NCBI GenBank assembly: GCA_051294375.1
Contig: JBJCIZ010000790.1
Location: 1-9,737 of the forward strand
Length of the DNA: 9,737 bases
Reading direction: 5' to 3'
DNA from: Paraspadella gotoi
Taxonomy: Eukaryota > Animalia > Chaetognatha
In this document: piece by piece, positions 2,917-9,673 of the stretch
Numbering within the stretch: the first letter of the stretch is position 1
Layout of the letters: each line of letters begins with the position of its first letter
Made by a program: the position numbers and the translations under genes
Notes under the pieces: generated by a model
Told to the model about the DNA's origin: nothing
What the model saw: the letters and a program-made list of their open reading frames with translations, nothing else
The model's database searches: none

Positions 2917-3012
2917 GACGGACGAGAACGACGACGACGCTACGTCAAACAAAGAGCTCACCCGATCAATATCAAGCCTGAACCGGCGAAGCCGGTCATG
3001 GCTTGATAACAA
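2917..3012 (+). mobile_element. Possible terminus of a Helentron/DINE-1-like non-autonomous element (GACG-like microsatellite plus terminal hairpin)
   Basis: gacggacgagaacgacgacgacg (2917-2939), then hairpin TATCAAGCC-TGA-a-CCGGC-gaa-GCCGG-TCA-t-GGCTTGATA (2970-3008). The other end was not located. Confidence 0.4.
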
Positions 3013-3984
3013 GTTTGAGCAATAGGGCGGGTTAAATTTGATCCCTTTTTATCATTAGAAGTTCTGTCATATAAAATTCATTTGTCCATCATATACAGGG
3101 TAGGGATTCAAAACTTAGAAAATCCGTATCACTTCTTCTTTTTTTTACTTTATGACGCATTGTGTGTATTAAAATAAAAAAATTGAATTGAAGATACTTA
3201 ACCAGACCTTGTTGTAACTATTAATGCAATGCGATAAGCACTGTTGCAAAAACGACACCTGCCACAGCACCCAAAAGAATCAGAGCTGCTCTTCATAAAC
3301 TCTTCTGAAAGATTGACCCATAGCTCATAAACGGTTTATCCTAGCCTATCAATATTTTGGTTAAAAGTCATATGGGTGCCCCCCTTTAAAACACCCTACT
3401 TAGCAAAGTTAAAAATAATTTGATATGGATAATATAAAGCCGGAAAATCCTTCGTCAAAAATTAAAATGTTGCTGCATCTGAAATCTTCATTTTTTTCAG
3501 CTGTAAACAATAAAGCCCTTTGTTACAGCCAGAGATGCCAGACGCGATCCGGGAGGCGGACTAGAATACGCGCGGAGGCGCATGTTTTTGAGGTGGCGAA
3601 ACTTGGACTAGAGTCAAAAATTGGGGAGAAGGGAGGCGAATGCGGAGACGCAAAAAACGTTTGCGCGTTCGCCCTCTTGTGCTTTTGTTTTTATAGGCGG
3701 AAAATCAAAAAGGTTTCGCTAAATTAAAACCTTTCTTTTGTTCCAAAAATTGTTCATTCTTTCAAATTTATTTATCAAAAAGAGAATATTCTCCTAGTTC
3801 TGTTTATATTTATTTTAAATAATAAGTTGTACATAAGCATAATTTTTATATCTTTTTTTAATACATCATTCACTCAATTTATTCCTTTTTTTAAACACAA
3901 AGCATAATTAATTAGTTAATTTATTCCTATGAATAATTTAATTAATCATTTAATGGTGGACTAAAATCCACCAACCGTTCATCA

Positions 3985-4059
3985 GCGGCCATTGGTGCCG
4001 GAGGCAAAGTCATTCGCCTCCCAACCCCAAAGGTCCGGGGTTCTAGCCCGGTGGTCGTC
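3985..4059 (+). promoter_or_regulatory. tRNA-derived (Gly-like, CCC at anticodon position) Pol III internal promoter in the LTR; not a functional tRNA
   Basis: Acceptor-like stem GCGGCCA/TGGTCGT, A-box-like TGGTGCCGGAGG (3993-4004), TCGCCTCCCA resembling the tRNA-Gly anticodon arm, T-arm/B-box GGTTCTAGCCC (4039-4049) within a CCGGG/CCCGG stem. D and anticodon stems are degenerate. Confidence 0.75.
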
Positions 4060-4061
4060 TG

Positions 4062-4142
4062 GCAGTTAAGAAGGGACGGGGCCGCTTTTAAACCCGCCTG
4101 TAACATGGTGTTAAAAGGCTGATCCGAAGCTCAGGGACTGGC
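4062..4142 (+). ncRNA. Twister ribozyme-like motif (P5-type), 5' LTR copy
   Basis: Core retained: GA-CGG, TAA, CCC-GC and loop CTGA-TCCGAAGC-TCAG. P1 and P3 carry indel noise. Predicted cut near 4089/4090. Confidence 0.65.
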
Positions 4143-4197
4143 TTATATTGAACGCGTTCCTGTCATTAAGCACTTATCAATAATTACTGCTCTTCAT

Positions 4198-4210
4198 TGG
4201 TGAGCCCGAC
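4198..4210 (+). promoter_or_regulatory. Primer-binding site, tRNA-Trp-like
   Basis: TGGTGAGCCCGAC matches 12/13 nt of the tRNA-Trp PBS TGGTGACCCCGAC and lies 1 nt after the LTR's CA end. Identical in copy 2 (6375-6387, -). Confidence 0.8.
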
Positions 4211-4382: not shown

Positions 4383-4620
4383 TGTATGGTGGACTAAAAT
4401 CCACAACCGTTCATCAGCGTCTGCGCATTGGTGCCGGAGGCAAGTCACATTCGCCTCCCAACCCAGGTCCGGGTTCTAGCCGGGTGGTCGTCTGGCAGTT
4501 AAGAGGGACGGGGCGCTTAACCCGCCTGTAACATGGTGTTACAGCCTGATCCGAAGCTCAGGGACTGCTTATATTGAACGGTTCTGTCATTAACACTTAT
4601 CAATAATTACTGTCTCTTCA
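4383..4620 (+). repeat. 3' LTR of family A copy 1
   Basis: TG...CA termini; contains tRNA-like head (~4417-4491) and twister-like motif (4495-4568). Confidence 0.9.
4495..4568 (+). ncRNA. Twister ribozyme (P5-type permutation), best-preserved family A copy
   Basis: P5 GCAGTT 4495-4500/GACTGC 4563-4568; P2 GG/CC; conserved GA 4507-4508; T1 CGG 4509-4511/CCG 4551-4553; P1 GGCGCT 4512-4517; U^AA 4518-4520; T2 GC 4524-4525/GC 4556-4557; P3 CTGTAACA/TGTTACAG; P4 CCTGA/TCAGG closing loop U-CCG-AA-GC. This fits the twister U-NNN-AA-GC loop and GA-NNN/UAA pattern. Confidence 0.78.
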
Positions 4621-4691
4621 CATTTATTCATAATTCTATTCTATTTATGTTATTTATTTACTTTATCATTTAAGTTATCAAATAATTTTTT

Positions 4692-5245
4692 TATCTAGCA
4701 TCATATTTTTAAACTTGCACCTTTTTTAATTTGCATTATTATTTTAACTGGCATCATTTTTTCAACTGACATAATTTTTTTAACATGCATTATTTTTTAT
4801 TATATTATTTTACAACTTGAATCATATTTTTAATTTGCATTATTTTTTTAATCTATATCATTTTTTGAATTGTTTTTATCTTGGATCATTTTTTAACTTG
4901 CATCATTTTTTAAACTAGCTTCATTTGGAACTTTTATATTTTTTTTATTTGCATTATTTTTTTAACTTGCAATCATTTTTATTTCATTTCATTTTTTTTA
5001 ATTTGCATTATTTTTGAAAATTGCATCATTTTTTTAACTTCCATTATTTTTTTGATTTATAATATTTTTTGGATTTGCATTATTTTTTAACCTACATCAT
5101 TTTTTCATTTTAAATCATTTTTTATCTCGCATAATTTTTTGAATGCATAATTTTTTAACCTATATCATTTTTCTACTTGCATCATTTTTTTCAAACTGCA
5201 TCATTTTTTAAACTTGCCTTATTTTTTTAACTTGTATTATTTTTC
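4692..5245. repeat. Minisatellite, ~19-21 bp unit (approx. TAACTTGCATCATTTTTT)
   Basis: Roughly 25 degenerate tandem copies of aa(c/t)ttgcat(c/t)attttt. Confidence 0.88.
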
Positions 5246-5929
5246 TTTTTTGTAATTTTTAAAATTTATATTACCTTTTAACTTATATGGTTTTAATTTT
5301 TATATTAAAATTTATATTATCAATTTATTTATACAAACAATTCATAAAATTGATACAAACAATATAACAATTATCCATTTGTTGTTAGTTTGTGAAAAAA
5401 TTTATTTATTAATTAATTAATATATAAAAACTAATTAATTATTGTTTTAACTAATTAATTAATTATCGCTAATGATCGTCATCAGATCTGGCATTGTTAT
5501 TCTGATTGTTGAAATTTAGCGCCTCCAGCATCCCTGGTTACAGCCATACATATTAAACCCAAGGGTATTGCCTATTCATAAATGTCAAGAAATGGAATCT
5601 CAGTACTCTATAGTAGACTGCAGCAATGGTTTTTAACACAGTAGCAAAAATACAAAGAAATATTTTTTTATTTCATGCTGCAGTATATTGCATTATGCTA
5701 TTAACTTGATATTCTATACATAGAGTCCCAACTACATTAGTTATTGTTTTCCAAGCTTACAGAGATCGCACTCAGACACACTACAGTGTGAACTTTAAAA
5801 AAAAAATTTACAGCATCTTAAAATATCTTTTAAAAATCAAGGATAGAAATAACTTCTCAAACTGCTGCAGCTTAATGGCCATAGGGTAATAAAGATAACA
5901 TGTCCCAGTAAATATTTCTACATTGAGTT

Positions 5930-6694
5930 TGAAGAGACAGTAATTATTGTTATGTGTTAGTGACGAACCGTCAATATAAAGCAGTCCCTCGCAGCTTTCG
6001 GATAACAGGGCTCTGCTAACACACAACTGTTCACAGAAGGCGGTATTTGAAGCGCCAGTAGACGAGAGAGTACCTCAGGCCTCTAACTGCCAGACGACCG
6101 ACCGGTCGTAAGAACCCGGACCCTTTGGTTGGGAGGCGAATGACTTGCCTCCGGCACAATGGCCGCTGATGAACGGTTGGTTATTTTAGTCGCACCATAC
6201 CATCCCCCCTCCACGTAGGAAGGATGTCTGTTGCGTTCTTCAGTGAATTGTTGTTGTTGTGGACAAGTTCGTCAACCAAGTTGAGGCATGTCGCCTGATG
6301 TGTTGTGGGCAGAAAGTGGCATCGCCAGTGAGGCATGTTCGCTGAAAGTGTTGTTGTTGCTGTTGTGTTCGGAAGTCGGGCTCACCAATGAAGAGACCAG
6401 ACAATTTGATTGTTATGTTGTGCAGTAAGTGATGACAGACAACCTTTTCAATATTCACCCATCGCGTACCGTCCCTGAGGCAGTTCGCGAGGTTCATGGC
6501 TGTAACACACATGTGTACAGGCTGGGTTAATGCGCCGCGCGTCCGCCTCTTAACGTGCCCCAGACACGCACCGGGCTAGCGAACCCGGACCTTTGGTCCT
6601 TGGTTGGGAGGGCGTAATGACTTGCCGTTCCGGCACCAAATGCCGCTAGAACTACCGGTGAGTGGTGGCATTTTTATGTGTCCCAGACCATTTA
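5930..6694 (-). mobile_element. Family A TRIM copy 2 (reverse orientation, noisier)
   Basis: On the minus strand: 5' LTR ~6694-6389, PBS 6387-6375, internal duplicated hairpins, PPT 6212-6203, 3' LTR 6202-5930 ending GTCTCTTCA. tRNA-like heads at ~6564-6646 and 6094-6166; twister-like regions at 6471-6558 and 5981-6090. No clear TSD. Confidence 0.87.
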
Positions 6695-8191
6695 AATATT
6701 CTTCATTTGCTCTCTCTTTAAATTTTCTCCTTTATTAAGCATAATAAAGGGTTGCTTCCAGACAATATATTCATTGGCTTCTTGGGCATGCCTAACAAAT
6801 AGAGAGCTGGATTAGTTGTCTCGCTGTATTAACACGCACTTCTTATATAGCCAATGCACGGTTTTCACCGAACCTCAGAATAACCTATTTATGTCCTATT
6901 CTTAATAAACTTCATTAATTATAATAACACTACCTGACCTGAGGAATAGCTTAAGCCCATATTTTAGGTAGTCGGTTTTATGCTGGCAAAATCCGGCGCG
7001 GAGCATCATCCACAATGTTCAAGCCAACGTTTCATACTTCTTGGTACTCACATCTATCCGTGAATATTAGAGGATCAAGGCTGACGTCATGATTGTCGTT
7101 TAGACACGACGTAGCTGAAAAGAATATAGACGAAACACTCTTACAAGACGAAAAGACATCAGTGCAATATTTGCTCTGATCATGTAAGCTTAGATGGAAT
7201 CAAATAATAAAGTACGCAGAAGTAAATATAGATTCATCTTTAGTCTATGCGGAGCCGCCGATTCAGCACCGCGCATGTACACAGAGCATGAAGGTCTATT
7301 AAGGGTTCGTCACGTGTTTCTAATTTCCTAAGTTTGATTACTACCGCTGTACTTATCCAACTATTGTAAACTATCACTCATTTTTATAACTAGTGAAGCC
7401 ACAGCTATAACATGTGAAGTATCTTAAATATTTAATGCATAGGCAAATTGGAAAAAAAGAAAATTTGTAAAAAAATTTTTTATTCTTTGAGAACGGATTC
7501 AGATAGCCCATTTGAAAAAGTATAGATGCTGGTGTTCTTCATATCTCGGATGAACTAAGTGGTACATAATTGAAAAACCCCTTAAAAATTTATCATCATC
7601 ATCATCAATACCGAGTAATTTTTATAGTTTTGTCTAATTTAACCCCATAAAAACATAAAAATTGAATTCCTTGTAAATATATTCTTTATTATTTTTTTTA
7701 AAGCTCTACCCGAATCCGCTTTTTAAAAAATTCTGAATTTGAAATATAAGATTTTCATGATTTATAGTAATATCGATAAACTTAAAATGCTTCTATGTCA
7801 TAACATACATAAAATCTTAATTTTTTTTTTTATCCCACCAGGAATGCTTTTATCCGTTATTTATATGACGAACTCTTAGTTTTGCCTTTGTTCCGCCTAC
7901 AATAATTAACAGAAGGTAACAGCTAATCAGATGATAAATGACGAAATAAATTCTTTTCCAAAATTCAATTGTGATCAAATAACACGATTGACCATACCAA
8001 ACCAATGGCTTAGCGCATATACATGTAAATCGTGCTTGCAAGGGATTAAACTGGAACTGTTACTATAGAACAAACCCAAATATCTCGATTTCTTACTATT
8101 ATGTAGATTAGTTAAAGCTTTCTTATTTATTTATAAACCATTGCTAAAATACTTTACAAATAATCGCATCAAATTTAATAAATAGAGATAT

Positions 8192-8408
8192 TGAAGAGCA
8201 GCAATATATGTCGGAATATGCTGTTAATGACAGAACCGAAATATAAGGGAGGCCGCAGTCTCCTACCTCTGGAGGCTTTGGCATCAAGGACACTGTACAT
8301 CCACCATGCTTAAGACGAGGCGGAGATTGAGAGCGCCCCGTCCCCCTTCTTACCTGCTAGGCGACCAACCAGGGGTGTAGGGAAACCCGGGACCTTTGGT
8401 TGGGAAGG
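8192..8408 (-). mobile_element. 5'-truncated family A LTR (copy 3)
   Basis: Minus strand reads cccaaccaaaggtcccgggtt...ggtcgcct...aagaagggggacggggcgc...gactgc...cggttctgtcattaac...ctgctcttca, colinear with the LTR from the anticodon arm to the CA end. Confidence 0.8.
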
Positions 8409-8433
8409 ATTCTTAGTACCAAACCGATTAGCA

Positions 8434-8506
8434 TAATCTTGTCCTTGACTAAGGTGCGAGTGAGTTGCGGTTAAGGCCTCCATGCAACACATCTCAGACA
8501 AGAATA
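8434..8506 (-). ncRNA. Degenerate twister-like motif, family B downstream copy
   Basis: Direct repeat of 8827-8889. Retains TGG-AGGCCT-TAA and P5 (TCTTGTC/GACAAGA); L4 and P4 are corrupted. Confidence 0.5.
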
Positions 8507-8826
8507 ATACACAGCTATAAACAAGGCTCTATGGCAATTAACACTTATTTCGACTCAAAAATCTCTCTCTACCGTCCTTGTTTACTTCAACTCCCATGTC
8601 AAACCTGGCCCTTCTATCCCTATCAATAAGTAGTATATGATATATTCATTATGCTAAAGCGATGTCTTTATCAATATTGAGAGTATGAAAGACACACGCC
8701 TTAAGTATCTAGAATGTCGCACGGAGAATACTATATTGTACTTCGCACTAGCATCAATATACAAAAAGCTGAGTTTTATGAAATTGGTACAAATAAAAAT
8801 ATTATCTATTCAATTAATAAATAAGC

Positions 8827-8889
8827 TATCTTGTCCCTGACTTTGGACAGGCTTTGGTGTTTTAAGGCCTCCATCACACTTAAAAGATA
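8827..8889 (-). ncRNA. Twister ribozyme (P5-type), family B
   Basis: Minus strand: TATCTT-tt-aa-GTGT-GA-TGG-AGGCCT-TAA-AAC-AC-CAAAG-CCTG-T-CCA-AA-GT-CAGG-gac-AAGATA. P5 TATCTT/AAGATA, T1 TGG/CCA, T2 AC/GT, P4 CCTG/CAGG, minimal P3, imperfect P2. Predicted cut between 8864 and 8863. Confidence 0.72.
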
Positions 8890-8972
8890 ATAACATTAAT
8901 AATAATATTCATTAATTAATCCATTAATTTACTAATTAAAACATTTATGAGTAAGCATAAATAATAAATTTT

Positions 8973-9673
8973 AAAGTCAACTTGACTTTGATTTTTTTAA
9001 TACAAACTCATTTCCACTCCTCTATTCCATCAAAACTTTATGCTGCTCAATCACACACTTTCCTACCTACACACAAAATTTCATCTCAATCTATCCATTC
9101 AATTTTAAATAATTTGAGTAATTATGAGTTGAAATTAGTAAAAAGATTCAAGTAATTGTGACTTATATTTTTTTCCATTTAAACTAATTTTCACTCGCAC
9201 GATTCCATCGAAACTTTATATCCAGGTTCGTCACACACTTTTCCACCAACACACAAAATTTCATCTCAATCTATCCATCCAATTATTATTAATTAGTGTA
9301 ATTATGGGTTAAAATTAATAAAAAGATTCAAGTAATTGTGACTTATATTTTTTTCTATTTAAACTCATTTCCACTCGCACGATTCCATCGAAACTTTATA
9401 TCCAGCTCAATCACACACTTTCCTACCCAAGTACCCATACACAAAATTTTATTCCAATGCAACCATCCAATCTAGAGTACTTGGAGTTTTTGCTAAGGGA
9501 GAACGGACTGACAGAAAGACAGACGGACGGACGGACATCATTTTTTTTTTAATAATTTATCATAATTTGATGTTCTGACATGATTTAAGTTAATGCCCGA
9601 CAAGATTGAGGGGGCGGACCGACAAAGTGAATTATAGAGTCGGAATCTGCTGATAAGCAGATCCCACTAAAAA
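8973..9673 (+). mobile_element. Helentron-associated non-autonomous element (HINE/DINE-1-like) with internal satellite
   Basis: Palindrome AAAGTCAA-c-TTGACTTT (8973-8989), ~180-bp tandem repeats, GACA/GACG microsatellite (9503-9537), subterminal AAGTGAATTATA (9625-9636), terminal hairpin with core ATCTGCT-gata-AGCAGAT (within 9638-9668), then an A5 run. The left boundary is uncertain. Confidence 0.7.
9004..9471. repeat. Tandem repeat, ~180-bp unit, about 2.6 copies
   Basis: Units start at 9004, 9181 and 9361 (aaactcatttccactc...tcacacactttcc...acacaaaatttcatctcaatctatcca...gtgacttatatttt). Confidence 0.93.

Follow-up and report, generated by a model that had tools for sequence, protein, structure and literature searches.

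A repeat on the minus strand of the window (the whole stretch of DNA analyzed, 9,737 nt), which we call B1, carries a type-P5 twister-like motif whose P1 is a loopless, self-complementary 6-mer, and it is one copy of a large, abundant, non-coding repeat family, B. Relative to a second twister-bearing family in the same window, A, its paired elements differ by compensatory changes. With moderate confidence, we propose that family B is likely self-cleaving at U|A, that it spreads in the manner of a retrozyme, and that its twisters are predicted to pair with one another through P1.

The B1 motif

8827..8889, minus strand: B1, type-P5 twister-like motif, located by a descriptor, Rfam, a phage-trained model, and a parse into elements
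8889-8884 and 8832-8827, minus strand: P5 arms (UAUCUU/AAGAUA)
8878-8876, minus strand: far P2 strand
8875-8874, minus strand: GA
8873-8871, minus strand: T1
8865..8870, minus strand: P1, loopless and self-complementary (AGGCCU)
8864-8862, minus strand: UAA
8863..8864, minus strand: predicted cleavage site, U8864|A8863, from the twister consensus (PMC8501958, excerpt)
8861-8859, minus strand: P2 strand
8858-8857, minus strand: T2
8856-8852, minus strand: junction
8851-8848 and 8839-8836, minus strand: P4 and P4' (CCUG/CAGG)
8847-8840, minus strand: L4

B1 can be parsed in full as a type-P5 twister. It has GA, U|AA, P4, P5, and the two pseudoknots, which are made with an 8-nt L4 (U-NNN-AA-NN), T1 as UGG/CCA and T2 as AC/GU. 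A preliminary description of this DNA had called for a Twister-P5 profile search, and that search found B1, although its score of 24.8 bits lies under the gathering cut-off of 37.6 (Rfam RF02684; E-value 0.09, or 0.0075 when searched on 811 nt); no other Rfam match with E of 1 or less was obtained in the window. A loose twister descriptor matched A1, A2, and B1 only in the window, and 25 of 500 shuffles. When a P5 of at least 6 bp was added to the descriptor, 15 of 1500 shuffles matched, and none of 1500 did so when a self-complementary P1, a criterion added post hoc, was included as well. A model built from 50 phage twisters placed B1 at the top in the window (15.2 bits, E 0.002) and A2 next, a result that is partly non-independent of B1 because the training patterns contained the T1 and T2 letters of family B.

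B1 has its elements in the same order as type-P5 twisters (RF02684) and shares with them GA, UAA, the U and AA of L4, and a 3-nt P2 strand directly before T2; it differs from them in its loopless 6-nt palindromic P1 (14–30 nt in theirs), in belonging to a eukaryote-like repeat family, and in its score below the Rfam cut-off. Because neither a P1 hairpin nor an above-cut-off score was found, we file B1, on its sequence, as a twister variant and not as a full member. In the window, 1 of its 3 P2 pairs is formed (AAC vs UGU; the third pair is C.U). Judging from this P2 mismatch, and from the broken structure of the second copy, B2, both window copies are probably impaired as ribozymes.

Comparison with phage twisters

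As a yardstick, natural type-P5 twisters were gathered by pattern searches over viral contigs, a set confined to three pseudoknot types and to P4 stems closed by GG/CC. Where the pseudoknots are canonical, a 3-bp P2 lies directly before T2 in 65 of 69 distinct sequences, which is the geometry that family B requires; the idea of a conserved bulge in P2 was dropped because phage twisters have a 3-bp P2. The T1 and T2 of family B are each present in phage type-P5 twisters: P2 is intact in 102 of 117 distinct matches with T2 AC/GU and in 6 of 6 with T1 UGG/CCA, all six of these being ACC/GGU, with ACC after UAA as in the B majority. For the double variant of T1 and T2, no intact example was present among 119 matches from 39 of the 64 parts of the viral contigs. 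For the CAAAG junction of B1, locus L125 offers a parallel, CAAUG. T1 tolerates other Watson–Crick pairs in mutational scans (PMC9901934, excerpt), and P5 has been found in 1% of annotated twisters (PMC6154101, excerpt). Exact family B patterns had no match in viral, metagenome, or prokaryote contigs, and the family A pattern had none in prokaryote contigs.

In the same viral-contig searches, T2 AC/GU was at least as common as GC/GC. Four phage contigs (L186, L216, L224, and L225) hold arrays of 3–5 type-P5 twister pattern matches within 1–2.3 kb.

Family B across DNA runs

8726..8896, minus strand: family B stretch at B1, from contig alignments (several pieces start at 8726–8733)

Eight DNA runs from two studies share words with the stretch, four of which were aligned to 8100–9000 and two to 8822–8905; the runs share only 0.05–0.08 of words and possibly do not come from the window's own species. 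The 84-nt stretch 8822–8905 was matched at 80% likeness or more by 2,879 contigs in one run and 123 in another (summed contig depth was not taken as copy number), and the longest stop-to-stop frames overlapping the B segment are 72 and 60 aa. The preliminary description had made its twister call and its second repeat family depend on copies beyond the window; these contigs supply them in large numbers and support both.

It had likewise looked for P2 pairing in the consensus, an expectation borne out in part. The majority base at 8860 (minus strand) is C in 98.6, 97.4, 99.8, and 98.7% of depth (runs X1, X3, X5, and X7, respectively), so that the P2 strand becomes ACC and the second P2 pair is restored; the majority thus forms 2 of 3 pairs, repairing one of the two that are broken in B1. 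Majority calls exclude positions near alignment ends (8877–8896; 8834 is absent in the 84-nt set). Other variants within B account for 1–4% of depth, mostly C-to-U changes, paired positions included, and no compensatory change within B was listed at 1% or above; we read these variants as decay and not as covariation. One contig equals 8726–8843 without any difference, and B1 is therefore at least partly accurate sequence.

At 8896, contigs cease to fit the window and continue with one common sequence (83 and 11 contigs), which indicates that B1 is shortened or interrupted upstream. What precedes the B twister in other copies (upstream of 8896, minus strand) is similar to the 3' half of a family A twister: its four top-scoring places in the window fall on the four A twister ends, but the best of these scores is equaled by 11 of 300 shuffled motifs. 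A tandem arrangement of two twister modules is possible in some B elements. B1 itself adjoins another repeat family from about 8907. Relative to the twister core, depth at 8720–8781 is ~7–8% for one study's runs and <1% (first bin) for the other's, a hint that a subfamily differs from sample to sample.

Family A and the palindromic P1

3947-4625, plus strand: small non-coding LTR element of family A (LTRs 3952-4196 and 4383-4620)
4495..4568, plus strand: family A twister, copy A2, used as comparator (T1 CGG/CCG, T2 GC/GC, P1 GGCGCU, P4 CCUGA/UCAGG)

The family A element has CATTT duplicated on both flanks (a 5-bp target duplication), a PBS-like site from TGG at 4198, a purine tract before LTR2, and one twister per LTR, 429 nt apart cut to cut. 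The LTR has a tRNA-like head by eye, and ARAGORN reported no tRNA in it. A second two-LTR family A element lies at 5930–6700 (minus strand) and is insertion-rich relative to A2.

Families A and B have in common the CCUG/CAGG P4, UAAG before P2, GGGAC after P4, and a 6-nt self-complementary P1, whereas the LTRs, PBS-like site, PPT, 5-bp target duplication, and P3 hairpin have so far been seen only in A; from their sequences, the two families are probably homologous. MAFFT misaligned A and B, and their elements were placed by descriptor. The preliminary description had taken covariation between the families as its strongest support for a twister and had counted among the changes an L4 closing pair going from A-U to G-C. 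The T1 and T2 changes are real and compensatory between A and B1, although no covariation exists between the two B copies, and at L4 the better description is that the inner A-U pair has been lost, with CCUG/CAGG common to A and B. We regard the pseudoknot covariation as sound sequence support for the fold, yet as ordinary twister variation; the palindromic loopless P1 is a new feature, and the T1 and T2 changes are not.

In both window families, P1 consists of six letters that are fully self-complementary (GGCGCU in A, AGGCCU in B); about 5% of 6-mers in the window have this property. Within one molecule, such a P1 comprises 1 bp and a 4-nt loop at a computed +5.6 kcal/mol, not an intramolecular hairpin, while as an intermolecular duplex it comprises 6 bp at a computed –8.3 (A) and –9.1 (B) kcal/mol. 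The P1 region spans 14–30 nt in 173 of 173 P2-intact phage twisters, from patterns that allowed 4–30. Moreover, the inner pair is C-G in A and G-C in B, a compensatory switch that matters only if two molecules pair, because no hairpin can form there. Since A and B look homologous, the palindrome argument amounts to about one evolutionary comparison, not two independent cases. Searches for a short P1 recovered 17 loci, of which L134 alone could be parsed as such a twister; a fixed-length short-P1 pattern had no match in viral contigs. L134 (697–738, plus strand) is a metagenome type-P5 twister that scores 37.0 bits, with a 5-nt P1 region holding a 4-nt palindrome and an intact P2; it is a possible independent case of a minimal P1.

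A plausible, if less than probable, alternative is that the twister is active and cuts as a monomer, the 6-mer being a short linker (1 bp plus a tetraloop) in an element that is otherwise retrozyme-like. L134 is consistent with this idea, as is the env22 twister, which cleaves without P1 at a nearly wild-type rate (PMC5408937, excerpt) and by analogy suggests that dimers may not be needed here. A monomer would constrain the outer pair only, however, whereas the 6-mers of both families are self-complementary throughout and their inner pair has changed in a compensatory manner. A hammerhead of the axolotl whose stem is 1 bp capped by a palindromic tetraloop cleaves poorly on its own and far better as a dimer (PMC7229834, excerpt).

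Copy B2 and the 391-nt spacing

8434..8500, minus strand: copy B2, decayed or misread; UGG, P1 palindrome, UAA, and P5 arms kept, GA and L4 loop absent
8503..8725, minus strand: spacer between B1 and B2
8186..8410, minus strand: A5, a 5'-truncated, insertion-rich solo copy of the family A LTR, directly after the short tail of B2

The two related repeats that had been described ~391 nt apart on the minus strand are present: a 13-mer recurs exactly in B1 and B2 with an offset of 391, a 9-mer with an offset of 392, and 57 of 80 columns are identical in their alignment (local score equaled by 4 of 1000 shuffles). The cuts predicted for them, at 8864/8863 and 8473/8472, coincide with U|A of the UAA in the respective copies. 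The remaining elements had been assigned to both repeats, and here the copies part. B1 keeps GA, UAA, and the L4 U and AA, together with T1 UGG/CCA, T2 AC/GU, and the CAAAG junction, but B2 has C-A where B1 has G-A before UGG, and no L4 loop (U-CCA-AA-GU) was found in it. B2 went undetected by the descriptor, the Rfam search, and the phage-trained model. Relative to B1, it has 12 extra letters, 2 missing letters, and 9 substitutions, and the tails of the two copies show no significant likeness (221 of 300 shuffles equal the score).

The quality of the surrounding sequence bears on these differences. Compared with A2, the family A copies to the right of ~5900 differ chiefly by extra letters: A3 has 43 extra, 9 missing, and 12 substituted; A4 has 75, 7, and 8; and A5 has 52, 4, and 11. 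Contigs on A5 miss letters that are present in the window at six places. A surplus of extra letters is the pattern of uncorrected long reads, and B2 probably lies in insertion-rich sequence of this kind. For this reason, the defects of B2 may be read artifacts, and the 391-nt spacing, which probably includes read insertions, may be too long. Over B2 and the spacer (8410–8719), none of four runs gave a contig at 80% likeness, a gap that is non-diagnostic in so insertion-rich a stretch. Four tests detected no significant likeness between the spacer and the LTR or internal region of family A, the predicted fold of the 391-nt unit is no more stable than that of shuffles (z –1.3), and no PBS or clear PPT was seen by eye in B, where the sequence is noisy and element ends are undefined.

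One credible interpretation, which we judge to fall short of probable, is that B1, spacer, and B2 make up a single two-ribozyme element that releases an RNA of ~350–390 nt, with the defects of B2 being read errors. The copies have the same orientation at a spacing near that of the family A twisters, and the extra and missing letters of B2 match the insertion bias of the neighboring A copies; its 9 substitutions and short tail, and the missing PBS and PPT, fit less well. This interpretation is compatible with our preferred one, retrozyme-like spread of family B. Somewhat less likely still, in our view, is that B1 and B2 are independent SINE-like or LINE-end insertions at an incidental spacing, with a twister that trims the element end as in Perere-3/RTE. 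Insertion at separate sites would suit the break in B1 at 8896, beyond which other copies continue, and the abutment of the short B2 tail on a truncated A LTR; twisters have also been described from the 5' ends of LINEs (PMC8501958 and PMC7761336, excerpts). Placed at a 5' end, however, a type-P5 twister would remove its own upstream third, whereas contigs span the motif to 8896, and no long ORF is adjacent. We consider it improbable that B is a fossil family of twister-bearing ancestry that has lost cleavage and now multiplies as DNA, whether as a satellite or as Helitron or MITE cargo, for although B1 abuts another repeat family and the within-family variation resembles neutral decay, the majority keeps every reported catalytic and pseudoknot position despite divergence from A at several paired sites.

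Discussion

Under our preferred reading, that of a retrozyme-like family with P1-paired twisters, intact B copies would self-cleave at U|A. In a type-P5 twister, the P5 arm, the far P2 strand, GA, T1, and P1 lie upstream of the cut, and a linear RNA that starts at the cut could therefore not regenerate the gene. Because this third of the twister is nevertheless kept in genomic copies, we think it likely that new copies arise from a terminally redundant template, whether tandem, circular, or LTR. We put the next step at slightly below an even chance: two copies in one transcript would join through a P1 duplex of 6 bp, flanked on each side by a core, cutting would be favored when the full unit is transcribed, and the distinct palindromes would keep A and B separate. 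Each core of the dimer is predicted to be built from both strands, with release of the full unit favored. By analogy, a host RtcB-type ligase might circularize the unit, and the reverse transcriptase of another element might copy the RNA.

The retrozymes described to date rely on hammerheads, a ribozyme class for which cleavage that depends on dimers is known. We tentatively suggest that A and B could be the first twister-based retrozymes, natural double twisters that swap strands via a family-specific palindromic P1, such that only same-family two-copy transcripts would be cut and circularized, some B elements perhaps having an A-like module just upstream. The literature searched, in which subscription journals were thinly covered, held no twister-bearing retrozyme or natural twister dimer; the alignments of Roth et al. 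2014 may hold similar eukaryotic variants.

The nearest likenesses are to other ribozyme-bearing elements. Metazoan non-LTR retrozymes (axolotl HHR_Amex1; PMC7229834, excerpt) are, like B, non-coding, AT-rich, and present in very many copies; their ribozyme stem is 1 bp plus a palindromic tetraloop, and a unit of 170–400 nt would fit. Their own marks are a type I hammerhead in place of a twister, tandem units of about 150–450 nt with a ribozyme apiece, a target-site duplication, and abundant linear and circular monomer RNA; in B, two copies lie 391 nt apart, the second of them broken, and no hammerhead match was obtained in 8150–8960 at E up to 10. LTR retrozymes of the plant type have LTRs with a PBS, a PPT, and a short target-site duplication, whereas the B spacer is unlike the internal region of family A and shows no PBS by eye. 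The dimeric minimal hammerheads of Penelope-like elements likewise have a palindromic stem that is thought to pair adjacent ribozymes (PMC6765202, excerpt), although theirs is another ribozyme class and no coding element is seen beside B. In Schistosoma, the twister variants of the Perere-3 5' end resemble B in residing in a retroelement and in their weak P1, but they are opened at P1, which derives partly from the target site (PMC8501958, excerpt), whereas B is opened at P5 and its upstream sequence is kept. Truncated twisters at RTE 5' ends have been cited as in preparation (PMC7761336, excerpt), and totiviruses carry ribozyme pairs in tandem (PMC13725137, excerpt).

If our proposal is correct, the twister has converged on the dimer design, and pairing through a palindromic stem would be a general solution for ribozyme-bearing retroelements; genomic twisters would gain a testable role. 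Related families with distinct palindromes and pseudoknots in one genome would then constitute a natural experiment in specificity, and self-pairing twisters might be of use in circular RNA production.

Repeat content of the window

A twister-like 5' half near 3020–3050 (minus strand) was rejected, with no L4 found downstream. The region as a whole is repeat-dense and eukaryote-like. GA microsatellite-rich repeats occupy 200–2300, a GC-rich hairpin lies at 2960–3010, an 18-nt tandem array spans 4670–5280, and three copies of a 180-nt repeat are found at 8919–9487.
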